A stretch of DNA of 63,135 nucleotides, counting the filler, from Hausera hauseri (lineage: Eukaryota): the NCBI GenBank assembly GCA_046269625.1. It is 10 parts of 10 records of this genome, joined end to end, with 100 filler letters (N's around TTAATTAATTAA, not from the genome) between each part and the next. Parts side by side here need not be neighbours in the genome. Positions count along the whole stretch, not along the records: positions 11,179 to 22,868 come from JBJURY010078880.1; positions 22,969 to 33,372 come from JBJURY010191082.1; 8 more parts are not named here. One strand, written 5' to 3'. The notes under the pieces were generated by a model. That model was not told the DNA's origin. It did not search any database and was given only the letters and a program-made list of their open reading frames with translations. Position 1 is the first letter of the stretch. Every line of letters begins with the position of its first letter. Shown one piece after another: positions 1,892-40,659 of the stretch. A program made the position numbers and the translations under genes.

Positions 1892-2010
1892 CGTGGTGCC
1901 CACATCGGTCGGTAATCTTTGGCCCATTTGGTTGAGCACGGCCGGGCGTCTGTTGCCGTCGCGTCGGATCCATAGTCGGTTCCGATTTCCCCGCCTTAAG
2001 AATTTAATAC
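1892..2010 (+). repeat. 5' end of the 3' LTR of family A copy 1 (conserved GC-rich LTR head)
   Basis: CGTGGTGCC directly after the PPT; TGGCCCATTTGGTTGAGCACGGCCGGGC is shared with 36724-36830 (+) and 54690-54798 (-). Confidence 0.75.
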
Positions 2011-14100: not shown

Positions 14101-15578
14101 AGGGGAAGAAGAGACACTGCTGCTCCAGAGTCGATTAAAAAATTAATCGATTGAGTGAGCTTACTTGTTATTAAGGCGTTTAGAGTAAATACGGCATAAG
14201 TACGGCTATTACGGTGGAGATATTTGCCTGTGCCAGCATGCGCCAAAACATCTGGCGGCTTTAGCTGTTTTTTAAAGCTACAGGATTTAAATTGTTGGAA
14301 GGAGTAGGCTGTGAGGAATTGGAACGGCCGATAAAGGTGCAACCTGCAATGCAGTTGTGCGCTTTGGTGTTAAATTTATTGCGGTATATACAAACGATGT
14401 CAGGTTGTCTGAAACTAGGCGCATAAAACCTACATCCTAAGCAACATTTATTAGTATTATTTTTGAATTTGGTGCAATAGTAACACACCATCGGTCGCGC
14501 AGGCGACCTCGCAAGTCTCGAATTTTGAGATTAAGTGCGGCTATGGCCCGCATCAAAATGATTCCGTCTCAGCATGTTCAGGGCATCTATTTTTGACGTG
14601 ATTAATGAGACTGTCTGATATATTGGCATTTTTGGTACGAAAAGAATTTATTTCTTTGTTCAGAGTTGATATTTTGTTAATCTGTTGTGTCGGTGCCCTT
14701 TGTAGCGTAGCAGCGACTAATGGCGGTGATTATGAACGTAGTATTTCGTGACTTTAATCAGCTAATTGTGCCAGTTTTTGTAGTGTCTCTGTGTTCTCGA
14801 TTATTGTGAGGAGTGCACGAATGTCTCTTGGTAGAGACTGCAAAAAGTATCTGCGTAGTAAATCAACGTTATTCGTCTGGTTGACACCCAAAGTGCTCAA
14901 CTGAGTTAATGCGGTCTGAAAAAACTCGGAAGGTTGTAAATTTCCTATAGTGTTATCATTAAAATACTTGTGGATGATATTAGCCAAAGACGGCTTTGTG
15001 ATTTTTAAGACCGAATTGAAGAGAAAATGGTATAGATCGCTGCTTTTAAAGACTTCTGACAAGTTGGAAATCTGCGATTTTGTGTGGGAGCAAGAGAATA
15101 AGAAGGATGTTTGCCTTAAGAAAAGCATCAATGATGTTGTTGGATTTTAGCCATAAAGCATGAAATTCCAGCCATGTTCGGCTGGGATGTTGTTAGTCAG
15201 CAAAGTATTCTACACAAGGTAAGTTGAAGGTAGATGACAAAGATGGAGCGGATTTTTGAGGTACGCTGATAGTGGTAACGTCGGCGAGGACTTTTTGGTC
15301 TTTAGGCGAGGCTTTCGGATCAAACCCGCCGAGTAGACAAACATGGATAGTTAGAAGAAGAGTTGACGATCTAGAAGTATAAGGTGCAAGGATTTCGGAT
15401 GACTGGAGAAAAATGCCCTTATAAGAAAGGCGGAAATTGGTAAAATTTGGTATGGTGTGTCAACACATCAGACAAGTTTTTGACCGCGGCTGTATAACTT
15501 GCATGACATTTGTGTACCTGTTGATTTTGAAAAAAGAAAACGAGTTGGATTAAATTGTCCAAAACGCCAGGGGAATAT
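11179..15578 (-). mobile_element. Ty3/Gypsy family A copy 2 internal region (gag, protease, RT, RNase H, integrase; degraded)
   Basis: Gag with two CHCC-type boxes (14261-14491), protease FLIDSGAAVSLL, RT MPFGLKNAAQTFQR/YIDN, RNase H TTDTS..LEFFSRKL, integrase DIVGPLP/TDQGPQF. Confidence 0.95.
14241..14273 (-). promoter_or_regulatory. Putative -1 programmed frameshift signal (gag to pol)
   Basis: A-AAA-AAC just before the gag stop, followed by hairpin CGCCA-gatgttt-TGGCG; same layout at 46879-46910 (A-AAA-AAC-TGA + GCCGT..ACGGC) and degenerate near 28225-28260. Confidence 0.7.
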
Positions 15579-15630
15579 TGTGGCACGCAGGGTGAAGGCA
15601 TCGCAGGCTCCCGGCAAAGTGGTTCCCGGT

Positions 15631-16218
15631 TTATCCAACCGAGAAACTAACCATCGAAGTCGAAATCGGACAATCCCTGCCCGTTAGTGTCGGGATTTTA
15701 GAATTCGAATTTTTGCTTATTGCTAGAGTTACTTTTGAATGATATTTTATGGCGTTAATTGCGATGTAAAGGGTATTTCTTTGGCCGTTTAATTTCTCGT
15801 CACCTGGTTTCGAGACAAGAATATTAGATTTTGATAATATCAAGAAAACTTCTAAAATACTGGTTACCTTTTTCTCGTAAGTTTGAACAATATGATGTCT
15901 CAGCGTTTGAGATTTTATAACCAAAATGCCAGTGAAAATGCGATTATGTTTGTTTTTAGTGGTTCGTGTATTTTTTAGAGCTTGGTGATTTAACACGTCA
16001 TTGCTCATGTTTCTCAGATTGTTCACATATGAAACTCCAAAATCAGTGCATCTATCCTGTAGTGAATCAAACCACTGAGAATTAAGAATGGGTTCAAATT
16101 TTAGCAAAACCAATGCATTATTTTCATGAGGCGAGACTCTAACGCTACTGATTTTTTGTCCAAAAAAACGACTAAGAATTTTGTGGTGGTCTATTTCTAG
16201 TGTGTTTGGAGAATCCAA
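15631..16218 (-). CDS. Hypothetical protein (cargo within putative LTR)
   Basis: 195-aa ORF, family not recognised. Confidence 0.3.
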   Translation of the reverse strand: MDSPNTLEIDHHKILSRFFGQKISSVRVSPHENNALVLLKFEPILNSQWFDSLQDRCTDFGVSYVNNLRNMSNDVLNHQALKNTRTTKNKHNRIFTGILVIKSQTLRHHIVQTYEKKVTSILEVFLILSKSNILVSKPGDEKLNGQRNTLYIAINAIKYHSKVTLAISKNSNSKIPTLTGRDCPISTSMVSFSVG

Positions 16219-16517
16219 TAATAAACTAAAATGTTAGAACCCAGCAACTGTTCAATGTAATGACTTCAAACGACACATCGAAATAGCTTTTTAAGCAATC
16301 CCAAAGGAGCCTTTCTTTTTCTAACGTTAACATGTAAAATTGTGTCAACCGAAATTTTTGTGGGCTGTTTGCTTTGGACGTGGCGGCGGGTTGTTTCCCT
16401 TTGATATTGCATAAGACGCAAAAGGCGTAGATAAAATACCCAAGAATTTTCGACGGAATATTATCAATTTTACACCTAAATGTCGTACCATGCGGTAAAA
16501 TTATAGAAATAGTCGCC

Positions 16518-18649
16518 TCAGTTAAAGGCCATATAATAGCTCAAATTACATGATAAACTCAACGAATGGCAGACGACCAGCGACTGGTGATCATTGTCAA
16601 CTTCCATGCACAAAGTTTCGGCAGCTCCTTTTTCAGTGAGCATATTAGCAATTTTGTTTTTTTCACAAGGAGTGATCTTGGTAAAATGCAGGGCATTAAC
16701 GTTCATTTCTTTTCTGTTCAACAGGGCTTCAATTATTTCCAAACTAACAGTATTATTAATAGCCAAGTGAAGTAACGTTTTACCTTGCGTTAAACCTGAT
16801 TCGTTTACTTCCATCATATATCTTCCATCTGAAGACTTCAGATTAAGCAACGTCTTTACGACTTCTCATAAATTGTTGATAACTGCGATATGTAGCAGCG
16901 AATGGTTAGTACTTTTTATTCTTCGTAGCGAATGAAGTTTTTGCTCTTATACATATTCCAATAAAACGTTCAAAATGGGTGAATTTTCATATTCGATGGC
17001 ATGTGAGACAGAATTTTTATTTATATCATCGCGAATATTAATATTACATTTTGTGTGTAGTAGCTTTTTGACAAATTCGGTTGATATATTACAAGCTGTA
17101 CTTACAATTAAAGGTGTATGCTCACTTATGTTAACCAAATTCAAAGCCCACGAACAATATGTGCATGCTATTACCAGAATTCTTTCCTCTTGTTTAATAT
17201 AACCTTTTAATACTGTGTTGTGTAATGGGGTCATTACGTCATCCTGTAGCGTAAACACCACTAGCAATTGCTTCTTAAATATTTTAACTGTTTGATAGTA
17301 AAATTTACCGAACGCGTATTTATGACCAATTTGTGCCACTTCGCTTGGACTTTTCTTCGTTTGCGTATTATTGTGACTTAAATCCAATTTACTATCGACA
17401 GGCCTTCTTTTCGGAGGGACAAATATGATTTCTTTTATTATTTTATTTCGTTTCCGTCGGTTTTTAAAATATTTGATATTTATATCACCGTTACTTTTAT
17501 TTTCCTCTTCGGAAAAGCGTTCTTCATAAACACTATCATCCTCTTCCGGAATGATGCACGCGGAATGAGAACCAAATCCGGAGTCCTGATCATAATATAA
17601 GTTAAATCTCCTCACTGTTGATATGGAAACATGTAGTTCATTTATGACGCAATCAGTTTCGATAATTGATTTAAAGGGTTGAGACTCCAACTTGGCCATT
17701 GAAAATATATTCACATAATGCTGTGTATGAATGAGTTTTTGCAATGGTGGTTCATGTAGAACTTGATTCATTGGTTCTTGTTTTCGTTGTTGAGTTCCTT
17801 TTGGTAAGAATGTATTTGTCCATTGATAATGGCTGTCGTTACAAACAATGACAAATTGGCATTTAACAATGAATGTTAACTTAACTGCAGGAAGTGGGGA
17901 AACAAATATAAGCCCATCTTGTTGTTCGCGTTGTAACGTTTTATTTCTATCAGTTATTGAGACATACGGATGAATATTATTATCACATTTTATTTTCTTT
18001 TGTAAAACAATAATTAAATGTTCGCCATTTTCGGCAACGTATTTCGAAGCCATGCACATTATTTCTATTTCGGTATTTTCTTTCGCATTTGCTACCGAAT
18101 GAATCTCAAAAAATTACCCGATATTCCCATCGATCATCGCCAACGAATTGTCATAGACAAAACACCGATATAAAAATCCAATATTCTTTGTGATATTAAT
18201 AGTAAATTTTAAATTTTAGGAATATAAAAACATAAAAAGTGCCGTGCATTACAGAATGAAGAATCCAATAACCCCACGCTGAATCGGAATGTCAGGTGGT
18301 CGAGTTGGTCCAAAAAGCATAATACAGTTCAGTGTGGTCTGTGCACATCCAAGTAGCCATGCGAGTATCGGGTGTCTGTACGGTTTTCCAAAAAGCGCTC
18401 GACTGAAAGCTTAGCCGGTTTCCTGAGTGAATTTGTCGGTAAATTCTGACAACATTGTCGGTTCTGTATGGTAAAATTACGGTGTTCCACCTTAGCTGCA
18501 TTAGAATAGTAAAATATAAAATTCATAACCGGTGCTTTTTGGTGCCTACGCTTAACTCCGACAATAAAAAGCTTCGGCACCGTAAACTTCTCCCAATCCA
18601 ATAGTAAGCAAAAGGCGTAAACATAAATATAATCAGAATAATCCAGCAT
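16518..18649 (-). pseudogene. Divergent Rel-homology/IPT + basic NLS + ankyrin-repeat gene (NF-kB p105/Relish-like architecture), disrupted
   Basis: Ankyrin motifs are clear (TPLHNTVLKG, HTPLIVS, GKTLLHLAINN). The upstream ANAKENTEIEIMCMASKYVAENGEHLIIVLQKKIK..QQDGLIFVSP resembles the RHD dimerisation (IPT) domain; basic KNRRKRNK lies between. The RHD call is by eye only. Confidence 0.5.
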
Positions 18650-19139
18650 TTGATTTCAGAGACCAATGATAATTGAACAAAAGTAAAAATGAAAGCGGAA
18701 AATCCACTGTATTTACAAAATGGCCAGCAATAAATTTAATTGAAAAAAATTTTTTGAAAAAAAATCACTCAAAAGTATATTAGTTAATTCAAACAAAAGG
18801 AGCGTGAATTGCTCACTCTGTAACGCCGGCACTTATAACAAACGTGATGAATAACTTTAACGATACGTTTTTACAAATATACTCGAATAAACATTTTCGT
18901 TTCAAGAAATACGTCGGTATTTCTTCCGTTTTCGGTTTGTTTTTATTGTCGTAACGAACGTTTTTTACCGTGTTCGAGAAAATGCAGTCGTTTCGATTTA
19001 TTGCATGGTTCGATGTCCTGATATGTTAAAGTACTTAAATCATCGGTTGATTTGCGCTTTTTGTTGTCGATGGTTCAATACCGGTTTGAGTTTAAAATTT
19101 TTCATAACGATTAGTAATATTGTGATCCATTATTAGTTT

Positions 19140-19490
19140 CCAATAAACTGTCGCAAGGTAGAATAATTTTCTCATAATTAATTTGCAGTGCATAAACGTG
19201 ATTGCTACTCATAGTTCAATTTCATACCAATTTTCGGCCAGAGTTTGTTAACGGTCACATGATCATAGCCGGCATTTTTACGAACTAATTTGTGTAATTT
19301 GTACGGATCTAGATGTCTTTGGTTGATATTTGGTACTTTCAATTTGTCGGATCCTTGCAATCGTATAAACTGGGATAATTTCGTCAGAAAATTCAATTTA
19401 ACTCGTGATTGGGCTTTCATTTCACAAAGGGTTTGTACTCTCGGTGTAAACTGAAGTGTGTTGACATTTGCAGAAAATGTCGGTTTAAGG
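19140..19490 (-). pseudogene. KDM5: KDM5/Lid fragment (end of JmjN + ARID), intronless
   Basis: KPTFSANVNTLQFTPRVQTLCEMKAQSRVKLNFL..LQG..LKVPNI..LDPYKLHKLV..W.KIG..YEKIILP matches KDM5 [22 protein letters not shown]. Confidence 0.85.
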
Positions 19491-19636
19491 AAAAAGCAAA
19501 ATCACTGGCTGAGCGGCAGCTAAACGAGCTAAGGACTGACCAAAAAGGACCACGACGGAGAGCGTTCCCGTCTACCGGTACCGGGTGACAGATAAATCTC
19601 CAGGCTTGTGGTGACGTCTACAGCCGCGGCACCACA

Positions 19637-22600
19637 TTACTCCCCCCATGGCAAAGATGACATTACGTACGGCAAAATCAAAATAAAAAGGATAAAAATG
19701 TGCCCGTGATCTCCTGAGTTTTTGTACGAACCAGACGTAGAACCATATCGATATTTTGTTCCCTGCTATATTTACTGAGGGTAACTGTCTTGCTTTGTTT
19801 GACGTGCTGTTTAACTGCTTGCTGAAATGGTTGGGGTGAAGTTATGTCTTGATTAGACATGTGGGGAAGTTGAAAACTGGTCGGTATGTTATTTAGTGTC
19901 TCTCTATGAGTTGGTGCGGATTTTAGGGTAGCAGATTGAAGTGTAGGCAGATTTCAAGAAGAATTGAAGGAGTCAAGAAAGGTTGGTGCAGACTCAGTCG
20001 AGGAATCCGGTGTGTCACTAACAAAGAACGCAGGTTTCACGTTCGTTTTGTGCAGGTTTCGTTCTTTGCCGTTTTCGAGTATTAATATTGTGTGTGAAAT
20101 AATGTTGAGAACTTTAAACGGTCTTAAATAGTGCGGTTGAAATCCATATGGCGACGGATTTTTCAACCACACGAACTTTGCTTTAAATAATGAGTCAGGT
20201 AAGTATGTTTTGTCGCCGTGTATTATTCTACAGAAAGAGTCCAAACTCAGCCGGACGAAATGATTTTGTGCAGACCTAATGGTCTCGTCAGTCGGTGTTT
20301 TGTCTAAATCGGTCATTTCAAAAAGTGCACGAATTGTAGTGCCGAAGAGTGCTTCAGCCGGTGGGCAATTGGTGGTGGTAGATGGCGTGTTTCGCCCCCC
20401 AAGTAATATGAATGGAAGGATGGTATTCCAATTCGTATGTGCTTCGGCTAGGATTTTTAGGAAAACTTTAAGAGTTCAGAGAAATCGCTCTAATAAGCCG
20501 TTCGACTGGGGTTGGTATGGAGTAGTATGAATATGGTTTATGCCCAGTCGGTTATCTAAGGATTTGGATAGGTTCGATACAAACAGGGCCTTGATCTGTA
20601 ATAATATAGAGTGGTGAACCGAACCTACTAATCCAAATCTTTATGAAGGCATCGACTATGGAGTGCAAGAGAGCGCAAGGGAACAGCCTTGGGCTAACAA
20701 GATGCGCGGCCCATCATTGTTAAGACGAACTGGTGGCCATTATCAGAAGGTAATGGGTCAACAATATCTAGGTGAACTGATTCAAAACGGGACGTACAGG
20801 GGAAATTGAATAATGGTGGCTTAAGATGCTTAGCTACTTCGAATTTGTGGCAAGCCACACATTGCCTAACCCAACCCTGTACGTTGGATTTCATTGATGG
20901 CCATGTGACGTGACGTTTGAGTATGCAGAATGTAGCTTCGAACCTGGGTGATGCAACAAATGAATATGGTTAAATGCTCTTTGTTGAAGAGAAGATGCCA
21001 AAATTGGTAAATGGTGCATAGGTGTCGATGTGTCCATGGCTACGCCATAAATGATTTGGACAGATTTATATTATTTAAGTATTTCAGTAGAAGGAGGATT
21101 CTGAACCAATTGTTCTTTAGAAAAAATAGGCATGACGCTAATTTTACTAACCGATCGTGACAAAAAATCCGCTATTAAATTACCTGTGCCAGAAATATGG
21201 CAGATTTTAAAGTTGAACACAAGTACGAAATATGACGTTCTTGTCGAAGTGATGGATACTTCATGTTCATTACGTGAACGAGGGGCTTGTGGTCTGTTTG
21301 AATGGTGAAAGACCGGGCGATAAGTAAATGTGAAAAATGTTTAAGACCTAAAACGATGGCCAGGATTTCCTTATCGAAGATGGAATAATGGAATTCTTGT
21401 GGCTGGAGCTTACGTAAAAAGAATTCTAGTGGTTCATTTACTCCTTGATATATTTGATGGAGAACCGCTCCGACGGCTGTGGTTGATGCATCGGTTGTCA
21501 GGATGAGATCGGCATCAGGTTTTGGATAAACCTAGATTTCAACGGTTTTAAGATTATTGCGGAGCTCATCGAACTGGTTTAGAAGTTCTGGCATCCAATA
21601 TAGAGGTTTCTTCTTTAGGCCTGCTCCTAGTTGAGCGAAAGGAGGAGTTAACTGGCTGCAGTGAGGGACGTATTTATGAACTAAATGCAAAGTCCCGAGA
21701 AAACTGCGCATATCAGTTGTGATTTTTGGTAATTCGATATTTCGTAATTGGTGGATTCTATCAGGCTGTGGGCTGTGACCGTCAGGTGTGATGATGTGAC
21801 CTAGGAAGTTGACTTTCTTTTGAAAGAATGTGCATTTTGCGAAGTTAACCTGTAAGTTGTTGTTATGCAGGCGTTGTAAAACAAGCTTAAGGTGTTCAGC
21901 GTGTTGCTTAGGTGAAGATGATGCTACCAATATATCGTTGATATATGGGTAAGCGAATGTTAGGCCTAAAAGGATAGAATCAATATGCCGTTGAAACGTT
22001 TGGGCTGCGTTCTTTAAGCCAAACAGCATGAAGGTGTATTCGAAGAGGCCAAATGGTGTTATTATCGACATTTTTTGGATGTCTTCAGGCGCTACTGGTA
22101 TTTGGTGGTAGGTTTTTTCTAGGTCTATAGTGGAGTAGATTGTAGTTTTATGAAACGAATGTAAGATGTCTTTTATCAAAGGTAAAGGGTAAGCATTTAT
22201 GATTGTGACGTTATTACGTTGACGATAATCTCCTTATGGTCGGAATGTACCATCTTTTTTGGGTACCACGTGAAGTGGTGAAGCCCAAGGTGACTTTGAA
22301 CCGTGGATTATTCCTGCTTGTTCAAGTAACGTGAATTCCGATTGGACTGCTTGTCGACTACGTGGTGATAGTGGCCTGAGTTTTTGCCTGATGAGTCGAG
22401 GATTCTGGGTGATGATGTGATGGAATGTCGAGCTATTTGGTCTAAAAGTTGGGTCCTTTGTGATCGTGCGGGAGCAAGACTTAGTTATGTATTGCTGGTT
22501 TTCTTGACTTAATGAAGCAAAGGGCGTGGTTAGTAAATTAGATGGTTGATCAATGGCAGAACTGGATATGGTGAATATTAAACTGTCTAAATCGCCTTTG

Positions 22601-22868
22601 TCAACGTTTTCTACTTTGTTACCATTCGATGGGAATGTAAAATTATCAAAATCAGTAGTGTTAAAATTCATATTTGCATTTAAATTAGGTAATGATGTTT
22701 TTAGTATAGGCCTGACAATCGAGGCAGGCTGCGCAACCGATGGAGGGTTATCTGTATATGTTGCATTTACTTGATTGTTTTTAACTAATCTACTGTGTCT
22801 ACAGTCTACTAGGAGGATGTAGAAAGATAAAAAATCGGAGCCGGGTATTGGTGACTGTGTGTCGGCTA
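19637..22868 (-). mobile_element. Ty3/Gypsy family A copy 3 (RT, RNase H, integrase, PPT; degraded)
   Basis: RT ORF 21532-22179, integrase fragments, PPT at 19637-19647; closely related to copy 2. Confidence 0.95.
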
Positions 22869-22968
22869 NNNNNNNNNNNNNNNNNNNNNNNNNNNNNNNN
22901 NNNNNNNNNNNNTTAATTAATTAANNNNNNNNNNNNNNNNNNNNNNNNNNNNNNNNNNNNNNNNNNNN

Positions 22969-23260
22969 TACCATTGGTGGTCGTTCTATAGATGTAACGT
23001 TCCATTTTGTTGATTCCAGTTACTTTCTAGTTAACAATTTCTTATTCCACAGTTTGTACAAATATTATAAAGTTATATGTAGTTTTTGTCTGTGCGCCTG
23101 TTAATTTTTGGGCAAGTCAAATGTTGATAACTATCAATTTCAATGTGTTTGTACGTGATTAGCTACGTTAAAAAATAATACAATTGATTAATCTGAAATT
23201 TTGAATTTTTTACTCTTTTTTCATTCTACCAAATGTCGGGATTATCGTTGGAACGACATT
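22969..23260 (+). repeat. Segment shared by the two LTRs of copy 4 (direct repeat of 32207-32500)
   Basis: TACCATTGGTG...GTTGGAACGACATT is near-identical in both copies, followed by abrupt divergence. Confidence 0.92.
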
Positions 23261-23388
23261 GTTGGAACATTATTTATCTAACGACTACGTTTCTTCAACA
23301 ATGCAAAGATTCAACCGAAGTTTTCATTACAGCGTACGACAATTTCCTCAAGTAAAACATTACATCAGTCACTAAAAGGAATCGAGAT

Positions 23389-26300
23389 TTGCAGTCTTTT
23401 TTGAAAAGAACGGATCCATTATTGAACACAGAAGATTTATCAAAGCTTTATCTGCTTGTTAAGTCATCAAGGCTCATTATGCCCTCTGATGGGAATTCAA
23501 CGAGCGACAAACGCATTCTATCGGGAAAAGATGCACTGTTAGTCGTTTGGAAGAAAATTGTTTTATGCAAAAAGGATAAACGATTTTATTATCTGGTTTA
23601 CAATTCATCATTAATTTACAACGAAATTATTAGAAATTTTTTGCGACCGAATCTCTACCAGTACTTGTGCAAATTTTTGGATCAAGTCTGTAAAGCATTG
23701 GAAGAGGTGAACGCATCAAATTATTCACGGAGAGCTGGACTATCATTGTACCTTTTACAGAGTCACACTGATGCTGGTCATACAGAAGAAATCGTTCAGT
23801 CATCCGATCCGACGGCCCTATTTGTTGAAAAATATGCTCCACATCTTCTTAAAGAACTACCGATTATTTTCATAAACAACAATATTGGAAAGGCCAAAAA
23901 ATACCGGTGGTATGCAAAGAATATCCCGGAAATGCAAATTTTTGTTAGAACTTGTCGACTTCGAAACAGGAAAGACAAGGGAAAAGACGACGGATCATTA
24001 TTACTAGAGGCTAAGAAAATATTCATGACTCTAACCGAAACCAATGAAACGGGACCGGCACCGGATGCCAAGTCAGATTCTAAACTATCTACTATCACTA
24101 TAAATAAGATATCTGTGGAACAAAGGTGCGCATGTTTGTTCGAATGGGCAAAAATCACTCCAGAAAATAATTTACAACGTCTGTACACACTGTATTAGTA
24201 AAATTCAAGGCATAGTCAATGAAGAAATGCTTTCAATTGCACAAGAAACTGTACTGATTAATTATGAATTGACGGTTTGCGAAGCTGATGGAAGTAACTA
24301 TAAAATTTCTCCGGCTCTGCTAAAAATCCGAATGGTAGCCCTGGAAAAATGCCACTTACTTGTCGATAATATTATTCAATCTGGAAATTCCAGATTAATA
24401 GAGCTCGGATGTTCAGCTCTGTGGAACCTCTGTCTGTCATTATTGCAAGCCAACTTGCAAAAGAAAACCACGGGCCATTTATTTTTGATTGCTGATTCCT
24501 TGGAAAATATTGGATGTCTAAATTATCCTTTCTCTTGCCAAGCTCACATTGAGGTAGCAAAATGTTGGGCAAGAACCGAACAATCGAGTAATGCCATCGA
24601 ATATTTCAAAAAAGCAATACTTTTTGACGAAACAGGAGAATATTCCGAAATAATTGATTTCTTTGTTAATAAAATTCAATTGCGTGAAAAGCTATACGAA
24701 ACCCCGTCTGATCCTTGTGATCATGCTCTTCAACTGTTAGAGCAAGTTCAACCGTCGATCACGACTGGCGAGGTTTCTATTCAAAAACTACAACCTTTGT
24801 TGGCTAAAATAGGTCATTGTTTCTCGCCAGATGATTTTAAGGTGGTGCTCGACAATGGCATATCCATTGAACAGTCGGTGGTGTTCGACGAGGTCCAGGC
24901 TAAATATTTGAAAATGTCTTTTTGGGAAAATGCTACAACTTGATTAAAGACATACCTACAGCGTATTGGAAACATTGATGATAAAAAGAGAATGAACGTA
25001 TGGTCGGATCTGGTGAAATTGTCTCGAAAACTCCAGTTATAGGATATTTGTTGAGTGGCCGGTCATTACGTTGTGTTATATGATGACTGCCAGTAAAAGA
25101 ATCAGTTCCAGACAAATATCGAAAGTGTGTCGGTAAAGGGATCACGAAATCCAGATAACGCTACGGTCAGTTAACCAAACACCTTACCGGTAGAACCACT
25201 AATGGTGGAGAATAAACTATTTGAACCATCAGATGATGCGAAATCCAAGAAAAGAGAAGACAGTGACAGTGCTGGTGGGGTCATCGTAAAACGTGGTAGA
25301 TATGAGAAAGAGTTAGTGAAGATCTTCGTTGACGTTTATTTCATTAGAGCAGAGGCTTTTGTACAGTCATTACGAAATGAAGGTGCCCAGCTATTTACGT
25401 TTCCAGAACAACCCAAAGATCTTAAGAAACATCCAAAGGGTTATGTAAAGATACAATGAAAGAAGACGCAGATTGGAGAAATTTTTGTGAGGTTTTGAAA
25501 AGAATTTTCGAAATGATCGTTAGCTGCTTTACTCAAACTGTAGCAATATCGATTGATCCCCAAGAACAGTGGATCACATGGAATGCAGCAACATACTTAT
25601 GGAACTATAGTATTCATATTATTACACTCGTCAAGCCTGAGATTCTCGCATCGAGTTTTCAGATTATTTATGACATAATTCGCCATGTCATGAATGAACA
25701 TGGCGGAACCTTTGGTTCAGTATGGCCTTATCTTGGTTAATGGAATGGTCCAACGATATATGCCGAATGTAAATTTTGCCATTACCTGAATTTTTAACGT
25801 TCCAATATCTGCTAATGCTGGCGATAAGAAAGGCAAGGAAGGACTAGATTCGCCGAAAACTTAAACAGTTTCACCTGCTGCACAGGTTGACCAGACGGCT
25901 ATTTTTCGGAAAACCATGGAAATTTGTAAATATCTTATGGACTACACAACATATGTCAATATACCGAATTTGGACAATGTTAATTCAGCGAATAATAGCA
26001 ATAAGGCAATTCTGTTCTCTAAATTGATTGATATTCAAGTAAAAGCTTGACTTGGTAAAATGTGGGCACAATATAAGTAAGTGTTACAACAAGGTATAGG
26101 TAGATAATTGGGCGTTGCTGATCCGGAATGTGAAAGCTGTAAGACAGGAAATATTCGGGCAATAACGGCAATAAATATGTTGTAGATTAGTCAAAACGAG
26201 TTGTACAAATTTTCGGATACTCCGAGTATCGATGAAGGCATTAAACTGGCGGAGAGTTGCCAATGGTCCCAGAAATCCTTTCCCATGCAACGTTTTCTTA

Positions 26301-26600
26301 AACTGTGTCATTACATAATGAACGTCGGTTTATCAAATACATTGGTAAAAAACAAGATAACTCGAAAAACTCACACCGATATTGTTTCACATCTTCATGC
26401 AAGCATCAATCAGGTGTTGATGCAATCACGAACATTGAGTCGGGGTTTTGTAAGATTTCGATTAAGGAAAATTACTTACTAACTATTGACAAACTGTTTA
26501 TGGAGCTCTCTCGCATATTCAGTTGTTTGCCACCAACGAAGAAAAAGCCGTTAGTACCAGATAACCGAATTCGAGCTAATATCGAAATTTTTTATGGTGA
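23389..26600 (+). pseudogene. CFAP46: CFAP46 (TTC40) N-terminal part, intronless processed fragment with stops and frameshifts
   Basis: RFYYLVYNSSLIYNEIIRNFL, LWNLCLSLLQANL, CQAHIEVAK, REKLYETP..D.ALQLLEQ and WITWNAATYLWNY match CFAP46 motifs; coding blocks are collinear with no evident introns. 3' boundary approximate. Confidence 0.85.
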
Positions 26601-26920
26601 CCTCAGAAGTGAAAGATTCATTATCAATACGAAAAAAGTGATGAATCGTCAAGTTCTCCAATTGTCGTTAAAGGTAGCTTGTTGCTTACTGAAAAAAAAC
26701 GACGCACCGGTCAATAAAGTCCAAATTACCGATCCCTCGGACTCGTCCATGTCGATTGTTCTCGTGCCATGCACTCCGCGGGAATATTTGAACCTCAGCG
26801 AATTCTCGGACATCGTCAATAAGGGTAATCCAGTCGAGAGAACATGTCATATTTGGCAAAATCCTGCAGACGTCTTAACGTCAGAGACATTCAGACAGGT
26901 TGAAGTTCTTTTTGCAGATT

Positions 26921-26952
26921 TTCGCCCACCAATGCGATCATTGTGCCACTAC
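26921..26952 (+). repeat. 3' terminus of the 5' LTR of copy 4 (inverted repeat of the LTR start at 31945-31984)
   Basis: TTCGCccaccaaTGCGATCAttgtgcCACTAC is an imperfect reverse complement of TGTAGTGcctgaaatgTGATCGCActgggggtttaGCGAA; AATAAA at 26713. Confidence 0.6.
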
Positions 26953-29900
26953 TCTGCGGGCGGCATGCTCAAACCTCTCCCTCATCCAAACAAAAATAGC
27001 TCATATTACCTCACAGCAATTTTCTTTTCTTGCTTTTAGCAATAACCAGCATATAAAAACCATAAGAGCTCCATTGAACAACAGTACAGCTCTTATACAA
27101 CTCTTTATCCTCCTTATTTAATACTTTTGACTTCTAGTTCACCTATCGAGGTCTTATTATACATTCTACCGACTCTTTACTGTTCTCATGTCACAAACAC
27201 CCGATCATCCATCTTACGCTTCACTTTCGCCTTCGGGGTAAATCGGAACCAAATCCATCTTTCTTGGACGAGACATCTACAAATACATACAATATCTATT
27301 GCTTACCAAATTCACAACAACCACGAACTTCGCTGAATCTACCTTGTGTGGATTTTTTTCTTGACAAAAACAATTCTATTAAACCATGACTCCAATTCCA
27401 CCAACAGTAATTAAAATATAACATCACTGATTATTTTGTGCGAGCCAACAATCTTTTAATTCTTCTGCCTACTAATGTTAAGCAGCAGATCAGAAACATC
27501 TCCGAACTGCTTCAATCCTCGACACCTTACGAAACACTCTGTGAGGTAGTACTCCACAACACGGATCCTCGATTGACAACATTATATAAAAATACTTCAC
27601 CGACCATGCTATAAGAAACCAAAAGCTATCCGATTTTCTTAAAACGGCCATTTTGCAGCTTAGCGCCTTAGGCGTAACGCCTACGAAAAACGCGGATTTA
27701 ATTAGCCATTATTTCTTGTCGCCTTTGCCCACCTCAATTAGAGCCTTGCTTGCCATTGTCGACGAGTCTACTGCTATTGAAAAACTGGCCATAATGACTA
27801 ATACATCCTTTAAATTCCTCCATTTTACAAGCTATAGACACAATATTCTTCACTCAACAGTTTTTAATGATTTGAACCATTATAGCAGTCAATTTCGGCC
27901 ACTACCACCCAACTGAACAATATTAAGGGGCCTCAGTAAAGTGAAGTCAGACCTTCAAGGAAGCGAAACACTTCAAGGCACTCTACGCGATCAATTTCAC
28001 CTGGCGGATGCATGGCTTGCTTCTATTATACGAGGTTTTGAAAGGATGCAAAAAAATATTTTTTGGGCTGCGGGTTCTACAGCGAATGATACACTGTGGA
28101 CAACCCTATTTGCATCTACCACAATAAGTTCCAGTCACAGGCTATATCATGTGTGCCTGGTTGCAAATATTACCAAAATAAATCTCTTCTTTTTTTCTCT
28201 CATTCTTATGTTTTTCCAAATCCTTCAAGAAACTAAGAAAGCCGCCAGATTTCATGGCACATTCTTCTATAGGCAGTACATTGAATTCTTCTGGCCGTCT
28301 TAATACCACCTCTGCAGTCTTTCTGTTGAAATCTGCAGTTTTCTCTGACAATTCATTAAATATAGACTTTCTCATTGACTCTGGGGCCGCCTTTTCCCTT
28401 TTATAGCTACCTTCCGCTACAACGTCCAACAATTTCCCTTCGCCTCAACTCTTCACAGCCAGTGGACATCCTTTGCACATTGTTGGCACCACAGAGCTCA
28501 CTTTTACCTTCCACCATTTACCAGACAAGTTTGTTTGGAAGTTCTTCATCGCTAACATAAATTCACCAATAATCAGCTAAAATTTCCTAGCCGCACACGA
28601 TTTGTTCGTTGATTGTAAATACGGCTATCTGCTGTGCAGGAACTCGATAGCAAATCCAATCAAATGTCTTACAGACAATATAGAGAGCAATGCATTTCAC
28701 TCCTCTATAAATATGTTAAACGTCTCGTCAACTATTGACAAAACCTTCGATAAAGTCTGTATTTCTTCAAATATGAATAGCAATTACAAATCTATTTTAA
28801 AACAAAATCCAAATTGGGTGTTGACAGTAGCAATGCCAGTTGCTTTTCGTCAATTACTGAAACTGCTTCTGATAATATGCATCAACCATTATTATCTCTC
28901 GACTCCGATCTTAGATCATACATCACAACGTCTTGCTTTTGCATAGTTAAAAGAGACATCAACTTCAAGCCTCCATCCTCAACTTATCATCATATAGTAA
29001 CAGAGCATCAGAGGCCTATCAAACAAAAGGTCAGACACATGTCGACACGCAAACATAAAGCTGTGAAACAGCAATTTAATAAACTGGAAAAGTCTGGCAT
29101 CATTCGGTGATTGAATTCACCTCGGGTTTCTCTTATTCATGTAGTAGCAAAGAAAGATGGTACTTATAGGCCATGTGGCGACTATCGACAATTAAACAAC
29201 CTGACCATTAGAGATGCTATCCACTACCACTCATTAAGGATATCCTTAATAACCTCAATAACACCGATATCTACTTTACCATTGATCTGTACAAGAACTA
29301 TCATCAGATTCCTGTTGCACATGATCACATTCCAAAAGCTGTTGTCGTAACACCATTTGGCCTTTATAAATTCATATTGATGCCTTTCGGCCTACGTAGC
29401 TCATCTAAGACCTTTCAACGCCATATTGACACCGTACTCTCAGGTCTTGATTTTGCTCATACATATATAGACGTCATACTAGTCGCTTCCACCTTTATTA
29501 AACAACATCATAAGCATCTCCAAATTATTTTCCGCAGATTGCATCAAAGCAACCTGCAAATTAATTTCTCCAAATGTAATTTCTTCCAGAAACGCATCAA
29601 CTTTTTGGGTCACATAATTATTCCCGATGGTCGTTCCCCCAGCTTGATCGCTTACAACAGTTGAAAAATGTGACATTACCAACTACTACTACCGACATTA
29701 GAAGTTTTCTAGGGACACTGCATTTCGTACACAAATATGTGCCACACTGCTCCAAACTGACGGCACCTTTCACACACCTCTCATACGGGAAGAAAAGACA
29801 ATTAATCTGCTGGATTCCTGATCTAATAAACCAATTTAATCGCCTTCGTGAAGGTCTATAAACCGTCAAAATCCTGGCTTTTCCAAAACCAAACGCGGAA

Positions 29901-31944
29901 CTAATACTAACCACCAATGCCTCAACTACAGTCACTAGTGCGATATTACGCCAAATATACAATGGTGTCGATGAGCCGTTAGAATTCTATTCCGGAAAGC
30001 TCACGCAACCAGAAAGCCGATACTCAACATTCGATCGTGAACTCCTGGTCATAGTTCTATAGGTAAAGCATTTCACGAATTTGCTTCTATCACGTCAATT
30101 CGTCATCCAAACCGACCATAAACCTCCACTTCATATCATGACGTTAAAACAGCCATCACCCAGACAAGAATGACAGATATCATACCTTTCGACATTTAGT
30201 TTTTCTATGAAATATATTTCAGGCACCAAAAATTTAGTCGCAGACTTTTTGTCCCTGTCGGTCAGCTCAATTGTAGTTCAGCCAGTTTTCTCCTCTGAAA
30301 TCCCGAGAAGTAATCAGCCATCATCTGATATCCTCCAAGCTTTTAAATATATTGAGATTATTAATGGCATTAATTACGACACATCTAACTCGACTAATAA
30401 AAAAGTCATTCTTGCTCCATCGTTACAAAAGACAGCTTTCACTCACTTTCACACTCTTCATTATCCGGGTTCGAAAGTCACATTTCGTCTACTGCAACGC
30501 CACGTTATATGGCCAACTATGCGTACAGACGTACAGGTCTGGGTTAAGGGATGTGTAGCATGTCAGAAATATAAAGTCCATAAACACCTAAAGACACCAC
30601 TTTACCACTTCCCTTGTACGTCTCGTTTTGACACCGCTCATTTGGATCTTGTCAGTTCTCTACCATCCGATAACGGCTATCAATACGTCTTATCTATAAT
30701 GGATCGCGCTTCTCGCTGACCGGAAGCCTTTCCTCTTTAATCAACCAATGCCGATTCGGTAGCAGATGCCTTTATCAAAATATGGATCAGCCGCTTTGGT
30801 TCGCCACGTCACGTTATAAAGGATCAGGGTCCGCAATTTGAAGCTGATCTTTTTAAATCTCTGGTAAAGCACTTGGGGATAGCCCATTTCCATACAACAC
30901 CGTACCATCCCCAAGCAAATGGTCTTCTTGAAAGGTTTTAACGTAAAATGAAAATTTCCTTGAAAATCTTGGCAAACAACAGTCATAACTGGACCTCAAT
31001 TCTTTCTCTTGCCCTACTCGTTTAGCGCAACATGCCATCCACCACCACACGTTGTGTTCCAGCTGAGGCTCTTTTTAAGAAACCAATTTGTGCCCTATTT
31101 GAGCTCTACAATCTCGATGAAAGTCCGTCAGATAAAGTTATTCGAGCGGCACAGTCTTACTTTGTAGATTTCAATTCAAACACCTTCTGCCGCCTTATAA
31201 ATAAAGACAAATCGTATATTCCAGAGAACCTATACTCAGCCAAGTTTGTATGGCTGAAGGATCCGTCACCTTCGGGTTTTCGGCCTCAGTACGTTAATCC
31301 TTATAAACTACTCAACCTTTCTTCGCAAAACGCTAATATTTTACGTAAGGACAGACCTCAAAATGTACACATTTCTAATCTTGAGCCAGCATTCTTCGTT
31401 GATGATGACCAGGACAACAGCCTGCCCTGTTTCAAATCTTAACTCTAACTTCTCTGCCCTCGGGCCATCGTCTACTGTCCGCGATGATTTTGATCCGTTG
31501 CAGCTGTCGCTATCGCGTCACAATCAGATCATTTCATTTCCTCCATCGTTCACTGCTCATTCGCCACTTACTTCGTCGTAATCGCCTGCAAATCCACCAC
31601 TCATTTCACCTTCATCGCATGATTCGCTTCAATCTTTAGTCTTGCTTTCTTCGCGTAATCCTTTTTTCTTTTCAGCTTTTCTTCCACTCTCACCTCTTCA
31701 TAATCATCCTCCAAAAACACCACAAAATTTATAGCATCTCTCCCTCGAACAACTCCACAAGAACCAGCAACATTTAACAGGTCACGCCAAGTGACATTTA
31801 GGACCTGCAGTAAGCAGAAGTTCTTAGATGGAATCTAACGTCTGACACATACCAAAACCGAATAGGTACAAGCTTCTCCTTTTCTTACGATATACTACGT
31901 TTATTTTTCCTTCTTTATAATCTTTATTTTACCACGGGGGGTGA
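26953..31944 (+). mobile_element. Ty3/Gypsy family A copy 4, full internal region (gag-pro-RT-RH-IN, degraded) with PPT
   Basis: FLIDSGAA, RPCGDYRQLN, MPFGL, YIDV, CVACQKYK, DQGPQFE; PPT GGGGGGTGA before TGTAG at 31945. Confidence 0.95.
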
Positions 31945-33372
31945 TGTAGTGCCTGAAATGTGATCGCACTGGGGGTTTAGCGAACTGGTAAGGAGATTTT
32001 CCCCGCCATGTGACTATAATATTAATTTCGTTACTTTTGATCGGAAGTAGTTTGATTTTATTGGTATTTTGTTTTCCTTGCAAAATTTGAAATTTTGTAG
32101 CATTTATTTGAATTTTTGTTCTCAACTAAGAATTTCATTTGGTGTATAGAATGTAAATAGTTGAGCCAGTTTGTGTTTGATGGCTTATTTAAATCCATTG
32201 TGATAGTACCATTGGTGATCGTTCTGTAGATGTAACGTTCCATTTTGTTGATTTCAGTTACTGTCTAGTTAACAATTTATTATTCGACAGTTTGTACATA
32301 TATTATAAAGTTATATGCCGTTTTTGTCTGTGTGTCTGCTATTGTTTTTGGGCAAGTCAAATGTTGATAACTATCAATTTCAATGTGTTTGTACATGATT
32401 AACTACGTTAAAAAATAATACAATTGATTAATCTGAACATTTGAATTTTTGACCCTTTTTTCATTGTACCAAATGTCGGAATAATCGTTGGAACGACATT
32501 TACAACTTACAATTCTTTGTAATTTCAGTCATTGCAGAATTAATCAACTTTTCTTTTCTGCGCAAAGCAGACAATTCTTGAGTCAGATATTAGAGGTTTT
32601 TTTTCTTCATTTTATAAGTTGGGCTTGTTTAATAGTTTTTCTGGTGGAAACACTTCAAATGTGATTATTAAGGTATTTTTGGACAAAACTGAATCCAATT
32701 TTCTTAGTTGATAAAAATTTGGAAAACCACTTGGAATGTTGCGTTCACTTTCTAGTTTCACGTAACATACCGATCTTCTATCCGTTTTTATTTTGTCTGA
32801 GCATATGACGTCACCTTGTTAATGCAGTAGAGACATTTGAATTATTCCACGAAAAGGCCATTCCAACGTTTCATAATCTTCACCTTTCACCAATGCAAGA
32901 AATACAGATAATTGTGTATATCTGCCAACACCGTCACCATCCGGATATACTGTAATACAGAATTGGTACTGTTGGATACTGAACGTACCACTGGTAATGA
33001 TTACATTGTTTTTTCTTTTTTCGTTGAAATTGGTTAATTTCCAAATGTAGGTATTCATAATGAATGAAATCAGTATATAGGTACATGCTTATATATACAA
33101 TATTGTAGCCGATCAGAGAGCAGGAAATTTACAGACTGTAACGTCTGTAAGCCACACTTTATTCCTATCTATCCAATGACGCTTGTCATCAAACGGGTCC
33201 AGCGCTTTCTTCTTTCCTTGTATTGTCATTTGTGAGGATATAATTGATAACAGAAGTTCTAAATTTAAATCAGATACAATTTTAAATTTAAATTGAGATT
33301 GTAATTTGGAATAATTTAGAAAAATTTAATTAATATTAATTAATTAAATTTTTTAAGGTAATATTGCAAATC
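31945..33372 (+). repeat. 3' LTR of copy 4 (truncated by contig end), carrying MATH cargo
   Basis: TGTAGTG directly after the PPT; contains the segment shared with 22969-23260. Confidence 0.65.
32612..33058 (-). pseudogene. Stand-alone TRAF-type MATH domain gene, one internal stop
   Basis: YIWKLTNF..SGTF..YQFCITVYPDGDGVGRYTQLSVFLALVKGEDYETLEWPF; the frame continues past the stop to GFPNF..NTLIITFEV; intronless. Confidence 0.85.
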
Positions 33373-33472: not shown

Positions 33473-36400
33473 ATATATCTGCTAAACTGGTCTATGATGG
33501 CCAATATATATTTTTTCTTCCTCCAGGTTTCTTTTAACGGTCCGCAAATATCAATGTAGATCTTCTCGAGTGGTTCGTTTGCAGTTAGTCTCAGGATCTC
33601 TTTCTTCGTACCCGTTGTCACCGTCTTGTTTCGTTAACATGCCTCACAGCGTCCAATCACTTCCTTGACGGTGTCTTTTAGGCTAGTCATATCGTAGTTA
33701 CTGCTTATGTATTTTGTTAATTTTTCTATTCCGGCATGGGATAGCATGGCGTGGCGTATCCATATCTTGCTTTTTGTGTCTTTACTATGCCATTTTTTAC
33801 TATGAATTTCGAATTCTCTTTCTTTTAGATGTCTTCTTTTATTTCTTCAATTTCTTTGCTGTCTTTTTGACATGGATATGCTTCTGTCGATTCTACTGAG
33901 TTTATCCTTCGAGTCTTGATCTTATGGGTTTGGGCCTCTTCGTGAGCTAACATGCATTTGCTGCATGTGCCGCAATTGGTCCGGGATAACATATCGGTGT
34001 TTGCGTGATCTGTTCCTTTCCTGTATTCCAGTTTTACATCTAGACTTGATAAATAGTTTATTCAGGTTTGGAATTGTGCCGTTATTGGCTTTTTTGTTTT
34101 CAACATGAAGGTAATGGCCCTGTGATCCGACCTCAGTGTGAACCTTCGCCCATAGAAGTAGTGATTAAAATATTGACAGAAGTAATATATGGCTACCAAC
34201 TGCTTTCGTGTAATACAATAACCCTTTTCGTGATTATTCATTCCGTGTGATCCGTATGCAATCACCCTTTCATGTTCGGTGCAGTCTTTATGTGATAATA
34301 CTGCTCCAATCGTATCAAAGCTAGCATCGGTATCCAGAATAAATTCTTTCTTGAAGTCTGGGAACCCTAGTATTGGTGGGAACGCCAATGCCATCTTCAG
34401 TGCTTCAAATGCTTCGTTGCAAGACTCGGTCCATACCAGTTTTTTGTTGTTTAGTCCGCACATCTGTTCTAATGCCTTAGCTTTTGTGGCATACCCTTGA
34501 ATAAATCTCCTGTAGTAATTGCAAATCCCTAAAAAGCTTCTCAGGCTTTTTACGCATTTTGGTTTCTCGAACGATTTGACGGCGTCCAGCTTGGATTGAT
34601 CAGTTTGTATGCCTTTGTTATTCACAATGTGTCCGAAGAATTTTACCTCCTTTTTTAAGATGCGTCATTCTTCTGGATTTATTCTCAGTCCCGCCTTTTT
34701 GATTTGATTTAGTACTTTCTCTAATATTATGTAATGTTCTTCTAATGACTTCGAAAAGATCAATATATCGTTTAGGTATACTATAGTTTGTTCGATATCT
34801 CCCAGTACTTTGGTCATTAGTTCTTGGAATGTACCCGGTGTTGCTGTATACCAAAAGGCATTCTGTTGAAACAAAATTGTCCCTGTTTAGTTAAAAAATC
34901 TGTTTTCAACTTGGATTCTTCCTCTACTTCGACCTGGTAGTATGCGTTTCCCAGATCGATTGATGTGAAATATCTTGCCCCATATAGTTTATCCACCATT
35001 TCCATCATATTCGGCATGGGGTATGCTTGCCTTTCTGTGACGAGGTTCAACTGTCTAAAGTCTAGGCAAATTCTGACGTCGTTTTTCTCTTTCTTCCAGA
35101 CGCAAATCATCAGAGTATTCCAAGGTGAATTACATTTCTTGATATTGTTGTCCCATAAGTTTTGGATTGTCTCATCGATTTTACTTTCTAAATTCACTGG
35201 TTGTCTATGCGGTTTGATGTTACTTGGTGCACATTTTCTGTCTATTCTATGCTTGATCAATGTTGTACAGCCGATATCCCATTTGTCCGTCATAAAGACT
35301 TCTTGGTTATTCCGCACTATGTCCAATACGACTGAGTTTTCGTTTATCCGCAGAATCTCCTCTCTTTTGAATCGTTCTTAATTCGTCACTTTTCGACCAA
35401 ATTTTCCTTCTAAGTTGCATATATTATACTTTTCTTCTTCCTCTTCTTTCTGTCGCCAACATAATTCGATTCCAAGTCTTGTAATTCCATTCCTCCAATT
35501 ATTTCTGGTGATATGTCTGTCACTACTATGAAAGTTACGCGCTTCTGTACACCCTTGATTTCCACATTTACGGACAGTTCACCCATGCAGTCCAGGGGGC
35601 TACCATTTGCACAACGGAGTGTGATATCTGATTTCTCCAGCTGAACATCTATCAATCTTTCAAAAATCTTCCTACTCATTACGTTCTCCCGTGCCCCTGT
35701 GTCTAATAGGCAGTCTTCCAATTTATCTTGTATCTTTATTTTTATAATTGGCCGTCCTTGTAGTTTATTAAACGTGATCTGCTTTTCCGACAGTCCTTCC
35801 AGGGAAAAATCCCCTCTTCATGGAGGCTCTCGTTTTGACGTTCTGTAATTCGTACTTTTTTGTTTTTGTCTCCAAATGTTTCCTTTTTTATGAACCTCCG
35901 TACCTTTTCCTCTGTTCTTCCCTTCATTTCTTTAATGCCTTGTCCATTCTTTTGAATATTTTGGGAGCCTTTGGAGTTGTTTAATGTAGTGCCCAGACTA
36001 GCTCCACTTTTGTCGAGGCTCTGCCTTTTGGGTTTGTCGACTCTGTGATGGATTCTTTATAGTCCTCATCAATATTTGCAACGTATGCATGCCTTCTGTT
36101 CGCCCTTTCTCCACATCTTTTCTGACCATACCCCGCACGTTTAAAATTGTCGGTATACGTATTTTGTTCTCTTCTGCTTTTGTCCAATTTTGTATAGCAC
36201 TCTTCTTCCCTGTGCCCTCCATTGTGACATCGATTACATTTTATGTTTATGCAATTTCATCTTATGTGCCCTTGTTGACGGCACCAATAGCATACTACGG
36301 GTTTTCTTTCCGGGCAATTCCTGTTAATATGTCCTTCTTTCCCACAACCAAAACATCATGGTGCTTGTTGGAGGTTGCATGTCCGAATTGTATATCCGTC

Positions 36401-36723
36401 TTTCTGGCATGACCAGCATTTCATTCTACTCTTTACCTGCGTATTGTGCAGTATGAAATCCCTTCTTTCCTGTCACGGTTTATCAAATTTGTGTACTACC
36501 ACATCTCGATAATTCCGTCGACCCTCTCTAGTGTATTCTCTGACTGTGTTTATTTCTTCCGTCTTTGTTGCCACTTCGTGGACTTTTCGTATTTTCTCTT
36601 TGATTTGTTCGACGCTTTTTTCGTCACTGTGGTAGATTTCCTTTCTCATTTCTGAAATGTCGCAACAGGGGATCATTAATTCCTCTGTTAGAGCTTGCGC
36701 TGTTACTTTGTGGCTAAGGATGC
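33473..36723 (-). mobile_element. Ty3/Gypsy family B element (gag, protease, RT, RNase H, integrase start; degraded)
   Basis: LLDTGAREN, RICLDFRQLN, YLNDIL, LDTDAS, IYIDICGPL..IIDQFSRY; 5' end interrupted by a family A LTR. Confidence 0.92.
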
Positions 36724-36870
36724 TGTGATGTCCGTGGCGGCCGGCGCCCTCTGGCCCATTTGGTTGGACACGGCCGGGCTACCGTCACGTCGGACCCATA
36801 GGCGGGCCTCGATCTTCCGCCTCAAAAAAAATTTTCGACAGTTCCGATTTCCCGTCACTTAAGTTTAATC
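36724..36870 (+). repeat. Family A LTR head inserted into family B gag
   Basis: TGTGATG start; CGGCCGGCGCCCTCTGGCCCATTTGGTTGGACACGGCCGGGC homologous to 1892-1990 and 54690-54798; no PPT in front. Confidence 0.75.
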
Positions 36871-36890
36871 CCAGTAGTCAAACCTCACAA

Positions 36891-37511
36891 TTGTCATCCG
36901 GTAATTTCAGTTACAGCATTTACAACAAAAACAACCAAATCAATTATCATCAAATGTTTATGAAATCGGGGCATACCACTGGGCACACATCGGACCATAC
37001 AACAGAATTTTCAATTCAACAAGAAGATTTTCCAGCTCTTCCAGTTGCCAAAAATCCAGCATCCACTGTTGAATCACAACGATCCTCTTCTGCAGCTGGT
37101 TTAGTCATCACGACGTCCGACAATAGCATTTGTCATCCCAGTTCCAGTGGATTGTGGTCATTTTCTCATACTTTGTCCAGTCGGGTCAGTGTATCAGATT
37201 CCCACAATTCTCAGAAATATCCGAATTGCTGTGATTCACAGAGCCATAAGCAATTGTCCCATTTGTCGACAAACTCATCTGTTCCGTCGACAAATAACAG
37301 TTCCCAACAGAGTAAACATATACAGAAGAAAATTATTCTCCATCAGAACAATTATATCACTAATATTCCAAACGAAATGGTCTCAGATGCTTTCGGTCTC
37401 ATAGCCCTTGTCAAATTGATCGGGGTCAATGATACTCATGAAAATATGAATTTACTTGCGCCGGGTCTGGATTCATTGACGTTAAATCGAGAGTTAAGTT
37501 CTGCAAAGTAA
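36891..37511 (+). pseudogene. CNOT2: CNOT2 (Not2) internal fragment directly after the LTR head
   Basis: EFSIQQEDFPALP and ITNIPNEMVSDAFGLIALVKLI..LAPGLDSLTL match CNOT2 motifs; the NOT box is missing. Confidence 0.8.
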
Positions 37512-40418: not shown

Positions 40419-40659
40419 GCTGAGAATCATAGACAGTGCTTGTAAAGAAATAGAAATAACGACTAAATGGGTTTATTCACGTGCAGAATTTCGTATCAGA
40501 CCAAGGGTAGCAACCAGGTTGAGAAGCCATAGAGGTCTCATCTTAAGAAGGTCGAGTGGTGAACTACTGAACTCAGATATTTGAACTTTCTTTGTATATG
40601 TGCTTTTGTATCAGTCATTTGACGTAAATCGCGATTTTGCTGTGTTATGAAGAATTGTT

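Follow-up and report, generated by a model that had tools for sequence, protein, structure and literature searches.

The stretch of DNA analysed here (63,135 nucleotides, filler included; referred to below as the window) consists of ten contigs of the Hausera hauseri assembly GCA_046269625.1, joined by N linkers and not necessarily neighbours in the genome. It contains one family of Gypsy retrotransposons, present in contigs 1, 3 (two copies), 4, 7 and 9, whose long terminal repeats (LTRs) stand beside pieces of host genes (hereafter cargo). All cargo seen is broken. The original prediction was that the family loads host mRNA fragments into multi-kb LTRs and shuffles them; it drew on a range that, as it stated correctly, crosses a linker, the N run 22869–22968 that separates contig 3 (JBJURY010078880.1, positions 11179–22868) from contig 4 (JBJURY010191082.1, positions 22969–33372). 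The evidence used here comes from the window, from protein homologs and from the contigs of two public sequencing runs, X1 and X2. X1 may be the source sample itself and is not counted as independent support, while X2 belongs to another study. The summed contig depths given for these runs are, as the tool warns, no copy numbers, and the contig joints described are among the 15 listed out of 59. The host is a fast-evolving animal whose CFAP46 is about 30% identical to the mollusc, amphioxus and fish proteins. Introns in contig 2, assumed to come from the same organism, are 38–44 nt long.

The pol regions of the family are 63–88% identical and all copies are interrupted by stop codons. Translations of the open reading frames (ORFs) give, after gag, the order DSG protease, reverse transcriptase (RT), RNase H and integrase, which is that of Ty3/Gypsy. 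Homologs of the integrase carry PF00665 and PF17921, and the nearest one in the protein database is 51–59% identical, with no usable locus. A CX2HX9CX3C Gag knuckle, the defining feature of the CsRN1 clade of Ty3/Gypsy (PMC2582038), is exact at 28111 and degenerate at 28018 and 14485, and Gag apparently has two tandem CHCC-type knuckles (28018–28164; ~14485). The CsRN1 5′ terminal motif TGTGGYG (PMC3601003) is exact in two of the six LTR heads of the window and has one mismatch in the other four. Knuckle and 5′ motif together suggest that the family is CsRN1-like, and a GPY-like integrase motif is also shared with the clade (PMC2582038, PMC3601003). We write “like” because the tRNA-Trp primer binding site (PBS) of that clade was not found. 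The accessible sections of these papers further give a mean LTR of 330 bp, against 117–554 bp or possibly 4 kb here, and describe no cargo. Searches of viral and metagenome contigs gave no match to the head pattern, and three pol/integrase queries there returned 6, 178 and 19 candidate stretches, none of them confirmed.

Contig 4, read on the plus strand, holds the only element with both repeats in view. The contig starts inside a repeat (22969–23258, ending CGACA), followed by a CFAP46 piece (23259–26350), a low-copy open frame (26351–26950; depth 28) that has no significant match, is not firmly CFAP46 and ends the cargo, and the broken leader, gag and pol (26951–31935; knuckle at 28111), across whose left edge depth rises from 28 to 705. 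A polypurine tract (PPT; 31936–31941) and a 554-bp LTR (31945–32498, TGTAG...CGACA) close the element; only the first few dozen bases of this LTR are high-copy. Segment 22969–23258 is 92% identical to 32207–32498 (24 substitutions and one 2-base gap) and both end GGAACGACA. This match defines 31945–32498 as a 554-bp TG...CA unit and places the start of the contig inside its 5′ partner. The direct pair thus brackets CFAP46, leader, gag and pol, with CFAP46 lying between the 5′ repeat and gag, while the 3′ repeat is without CFAP46 and is followed by unrelated repeat DNA. Neither the predicted LTR of at least 4 kb nor the same cargo in both LTRs, which a multi-kb cargo LTR would require, was borne out in this contig. 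At its right end the contig-4 LTR has a 25-bp unit whose 5-bp ends are inverted (TGTCG...CGACA; 23234–23258 and 32474–32498).

The CFAP46 piece covers the front ~1,000 residues of the protein in sense orientation, with 14 stops and two frameshifts. Its identity, already proposed in the original prediction, is confirmed (E 1e-22), and profile positions 106–976 are collinear with 23527–26317. The offset drifts by 175 nt over 2.8 kb, much of which is one in-frame low-complexity insert, leaving no room for introns. CFAP46 homology was not significant for the N-terminal segment 23233–23526 (6/6 tests) nor for 26302–27036, no poly(A) remnant was found at the cargo ends, and word-based searches with the CFAP46 and ankyrin pieces gave no matches. 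The summed depth of the CFAP46 stretch in X1 is 21–50, with exact pieces at 7.5–8.5, from which we infer that it is present in a few copies. At both frameshift sites the window and other X1 copies disagree, and one of these copies may be the CFAP46 parent gene. X2 leaves most of CFAP46 uncovered and is uninformative on this point.

Contig 3, read on the minus strand, shows element A, a PPT, 4,058 bases, and then the leader and gag of element B. Element A (19648–22868; pol and 3′ untranslated region) and element B (11179–15578; leader, gag and pol, with stops and frameshifts) are both broken, cut by the contig ends and 88% identical to each other. Substitutions between them are even over codon positions in three regions, with RT showing mostly third-position changes (14/6/26). 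The PPT of element A (19640–19647) precedes its LTR head, a candidate 159-bp LTR ending CGACA (19478–19636). The KDM5 piece that follows (19208–19486), with JmjN and ARID parts, is in sense and is assigned by a PDB match (E 6e-19, KDM5A residues 48–138) and by Pfam ARID. Next come a 108-codon frame (18332–18655) without database match, an ankyrin-repeat piece (16521–18113; Pfam Ank) made of a 388-codon open frame and its frameshifted continuation, and a conserved 14-base tail ending CCACA (15579–15592), which is a candidate end of an extended LTR or the 5′ edge of the leader. Presence of KDM5 and ankyrin repeats agrees with what had been proposed, and the ankyrin piece is probably NF-kB/Rel-like: the ESM Atlas gives 0.95 with 183 shared features, a lead only for the announced Rel identity, and neither Pfam nor PDB returned a Rel domain. 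The distance from cargo to the first gag motif is similar in contigs 3 and 4 (345 and 375 bases).

All five family elements with a visible 3′ end have a G-run PPT followed by the 9-base head [T/C]GT[A/G]GTG[C/T]C, at the predicted positions 1892, 19636, 31945, 43073 and 54798; the head at 1892 reads CGTGG and not the expected TGTGG. A sixth head, TGTGATGTC at 36724, has no PPT. Pairwise comparison of the six heads, the two tails and the contig-4 start gave 4 of 36 pairs far above shuffles, three of them among heads 1892, 54798 and 36724, the fourth being the contig-4 repeat. These three heads delimit short units: 135 bp at 1892–2026 (plus strand, ending CGACA, then a decayed sense frame at 2582–3265), 135 bp at 54664–54798 (minus strand, ending CGAAA at the same offset), and 117 bp at 36724–36840 (plus strand, abutting truncated gag of another Gypsy family). 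At 19636, CGACA comes at offset 159. Host sequence meets the LTR at CGACA in three places: the KDM5 match starts one codon before it, CFAP46 starts at 23259, and a CNOT2-like piece starts at 36841. The identified cargo pieces (4/4) are in sense, at all three joints.

A few observations concern the same heads. The stretches 1892–2005, 36724–36830 and 54685–54798 are GC-rich and have, by eye, A-box- and B-box-like segments. A tRNA-like nature was considered and not retained: ARAGORN found 0 genes, Rfam gave nothing relevant and a consensus fold of the three heads had double changes in 2 of 29 pairs. Neither the ORF after 1892 nor the frame 18332–18655 was identified by profile or database searches. 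A decayed integrase read by eye in 2000–4550 was also discarded; the integrase profile matched nothing there, nor in any cargo span.

The behaviour of contig 3 bears on how long the LTR is. X1 covers the 4,058-bp span at a summed depth of 162–1037, compared with ~1350 for leader and gag, and X2 covers 30 of its 30 bins. Among the listed joints, LTR head and KDM5 are bridged in X2 (contig 19163–19516). In X1, a contig of depth 555 connects 15592 with 17346 and so lacks 1,753 bases while keeping the last 14, and a further X2 contig terminates at 15588. Coverage and joints together indicate that the contig-3 cassette has been amplified and that 15579–15592 is a conserved edge. These facts, and the presence of a single head and a single tail from the PPT to the next leader, where a second short repeat was not found, are what would be expected if the family had multi-kb LTRs with a fixed head, a fixed tail of 10–14 bases and host pieces between them, the pieces being taken up when strong-stop synthesis switches template and then duplicated at the two ends. 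The 18-fold fall in depth behind the contig-4 3′ head (1345 to 74) would likewise mean that LTR interiors vary. We regard this alternative as rather unlikely, on account of the contig-4 3′ repeat, which is free of CFAP46 and has its terminal CA at the very point where CFAP46 begins behind the 5′ copy, of the common offset at which short units close in three heads, and of the TRAF piece, which is not cargo (see below). Moreover, no PBS follows either tail; near the boundaries, a CA followed by TGG is present only behind the short ends 19607 and 23258. The tails CCACA (15579) and CACTAC (26952, followed by T) exist as predicted, but their role as LTR ends is not confirmed: they match the published CsRN1 3′ motif at 6/7 and 5/7 positions (by eye), and chance alone gives some ten full 7/7 matches in 4 kb. 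A possible long LTR is suggested by the 4,058-bp span of contig 3 alone, which is multi-copy in the public runs and whose high-depth deletion variant retains the 14-base edge. Within the head of contig 3, the first 30 bases (19607–19636) have perfect 7-bp inverted repeats at their ends and are followed by four bases and TGG. This 30-bp unit sits directly after the PPT and its last bases resemble the 15579 tail; it shares with the contig-4 LTR end a continuation by four bases and TGGA.

Whether cargo was copied from mature mRNA depends on its introns. The CNOT2-like piece (36841–37507, plus strand), found as predicted after the 36724 head, is a weak match (PDB E 0.003, residues 3–52 of 201) that involves only its last 50 residues; its front at 36841 carries a probable CNOT2 front motif. 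The frame stops at a donor-like AA/GTAAT, with an AG 51 nt on. Similarly, the KDM5 frame runs into GT at the point where the Pfam ARID match breaks off (position 64 of 89); an AG lies 61 nt further, which defines a putative retained GT-AG intron (19148–19208, minus strand). Both domains presumably resume past these putative introns, a continuation read by eye. A strict scan for AT-rich GTA-type small introns returned three in contig 2 and none in the four cargo spans, a scan that would miss the KDM5 and CNOT2 candidates. On this sequence reading KDM5 and CNOT2 appear to keep an intron. Of the pieces claimed to be intronless, CFAP46 and the ankyrin frame are so, TRAF, with its 45-nt intron, is not, and KDM5 and CNOT2, whose frames stop at GT, are in doubt. 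The apparent introns fit poorly with capture of mature mRNA only. They are a difficulty for capture by microhomology, in which, at the second strand transfer, the LTR terminal bases would pair with a matching pentamer in the copy of a mature host mRNA and synthesis would switch to that template, giving the process of Tan et al. (2016) at an unusual site and the same layout. CGACA does lie inside an open host frame at all three joints, the CFAP46 and ankyrin frames are uninterrupted, and microsimilarity was reported at 25 of 29 junctions (PMC5131818). An open frame over five bases is weak evidence, though, and cargo ends without poly(A) remnant also speak against this mechanism, which we judge quite improbable.

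The TRAF-MATH piece of contig 4 (32615–33325) raises the question of whether there was any capture at all. It is present as predicted, but it is antisense and contains a GT-AG intron (33088–33132) whose removal clears two stops. The piece lies at a summed depth of 8,033 to 192,222 in X1, and the stretch that bears it (32685–33372) reaches the higher of these values there and 2,196 in X2, far above Gypsy pol. It is flanking DNA of a separate, very high-copy repeat and not cargo, contrary to the original prediction. If flanks can be gene-bearing repeats of this kind, elements with short LTRs might simply have landed in a genome where gene fragments are abundantly repeated, and the LTR before the leader might be missing through deletion or through errors of short-read assembly. 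That no listed run contig spans the whole locus of contig 3 or of contig 4, that neither PBS nor target site duplication (TSD) was found, and that A/B differences outside RT are mostly even over codon positions, as in decayed copies, all go in the same direction. Such an origin nevertheless has a low probability in our judgement, given that the contig-4 pair brackets CFAP46 in direct orientation, that both contig-3 joints recur in public runs, and that cargo is in sense at 3/3 joints and at a similar distance from gag. Capture and shuffling by the element are supported by pieces that lie beside LTRs in sense, differ by locus and, in contig 3, are multi-copy; the placement of all of them inside multi-kb LTRs is supported in part at most, contig 3 alone being a possible case, with an LTR of 554 bp in contig 4, cargo outside its 3′ copy and three heads closing at 117–135 bp.

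We therefore tentatively prefer an explanation that stands as a real possibility somewhat short of probable: a CsRN1-like Gypsy family, probably with short LTRs (~120–160 bp; 554 bp in contig 4), whose CGACA end is joined in sense to host pieces before leader and gag, be these of that element or of the next one, likely by read-through transduction. It starts from what is directly observed, namely the layout, the contig-4 repeat pair, the sense orientation and the multi-copy cargo of contig 3. Read-through is suggested by the joint at the LTR terminal CA, the sense orientation, the mixed splicing and the position before the leader, since CFAP46 without room for introns alongside GT-ending KDM5 and CNOT2 frames is the mixture expected from partly spliced read-through RNA. 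PMC5131818 mentions read-through (3′) transduction as one route. An element would integrate in sense inside a gene, fixing the joint at its terminal CA, and transcription through the LTR into the gene would yield a chimeric transcript, spliced in full or in part. In reverse transcription, the minus strand being copied from a normal element RNA would leave it in the leader and continue on the chimeric transcript. The product may be LTR, host piece, leader, gag, pol and LTR, the order of contig 4, or a tandem in which two elements share an LTR, as in contig 3; tandem LTR retrotransposons of this kind have been described (PMC11899658). Repeated rounds could stack pieces. Were priming to occur downstream of cargo, the next generation would copy cargo into both LTRs, and the 4-kb span of contig 3 may be such a case.

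Several points weigh against this explanation. No tRNA-Trp PBS or other clear PBS was found on either side of the cargo or at either leader of these decayed elements, so that priming of the cargo-bearing copies is unexplained. CsRN1 elements are marked by a 4-bp TSD; the 117-bp unit at 36724 has none, and in no element do both outer ends fall on the same contig. The head at 43073 shows no CGACA-type end within 472 bases (1 of 6 heads), and the LTR of contig 3 could end at 30, 159 or 4,058 bp. The chance of CGACA ends in three of five heads (P ~0.001–0.003) is overstated, because this 5-mer was picked after seeing contig 4 and heads 1892, 54798 and 36724 are homologous; two independent cases at ~0.07 each are a fairer count. 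An in-frame ATG at 23233, inside the 5′ repeat and near CFAP46 profile position 8, means that the repeat could be partly cargo (an mRNA 5′ end). Database tests of the short KDM5 and CNOT2 downstream pieces were blank. As for other primers, TGGTGACC at 26595, the best near-match to a PBS, was rejected as being at chance level, without a preceding CA and in low-copy, low-depth DNA, and a search for self-priming found at most 6 complementary bases. A bolder version, which we consider unlikely, is a family without fixed tRNA priming in which capture at the LTR end is routine and each capture yields an extended LTR, an integron-like cassette stack run by reverse transcriptase. Contig 4 would then be first-generation and contig 3 an amplified 4-kb LTR.

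Gene capture by LTR elements is already known (PMC5131818, PMC2774510, PMC6431247, PMC7175516), including gene fragments in 425 maize LTR elements (PMC2774510). Among the closest systems is LTR-mediated retroposition in metazoans (Tan et al. 2016, PMC5131818), where partial, sometimes multi-gene host pieces reside inside LTR retrotransposons, are re-mobile and occur across animals. Those retrocopies replace part of the internal ORFs, whereas here gag and pol are kept after a cargo (contigs 3 and 4) that begins at the right end of the LTR, precedes the leader and may contain retained introns. Retroviral read-through also recombines RNA from an integrated element with element RNA and puts the joint at the LTR end, but it is rare there, while it is apparently recurrent here in one Gypsy family, with cargo upstream of gag. 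Long LTRs (Ogre, 1.9–6.5 kb), extra ORFs, captured MATH and ankyrin (planarian Burro) and multi-gene mosaics (maize Bs1) have precedents (PMC6431247, PMC5131818), although from what these sources present the extra genes are stable and internal, unlike the broken, lineage-variable pieces at the LTR joint. Tandem LTR elements (PMC11899658) have the internal region-LTR-internal region order of contig 3, and the accessible text describes no host cargo beside the shared LTR. Nothing on cargo appears in the available part of PMC3286476. No description of host cassettes fixed at an LTR end was found in a literature search whose coverage excluded most subscription papers. A fixed joint at the LTR end before gag would be an unusual variant of a known process.

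Other features of the window were noted. A second Gypsy family adjoins the ends of the family in opposite orientation in two contigs (4550–5136; 33473–36723). A 283-bp direct repeat (92%; 6223–6505 and 10791–11076) brackets a TBP-like fragment (7956–8273), an intact intron-free Dcp2/NUDIX frame (9494–10189) and a 330-bp palindrome (7132–7464); its first copy interrupts an intron-bearing gene, and this is possibly another gene-carrying element. By eye, 47034–52600 and 58577–63135 contain Polinton- or adintovirus-like frames (B-family polymerase, dUTPase and RING finger, with a Pfam match for the RING only), the first of these segments being GC-rich and perhaps from another organism, and 40628–42142 contains a Penelope-type RT and GIY-YIG frame.

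Routine capture at the LTR end, if that is what this family does, would copy and shuffle pieces of core genes (chromatin, immunity, cilia, mRNA decay) of an animal genome at a high rate and set them straight behind an LTR promoter. Such elements would be prone to misannotation by software, either as genes or as LTR-less elements. The fixed joint makes the mechanism easily testable.

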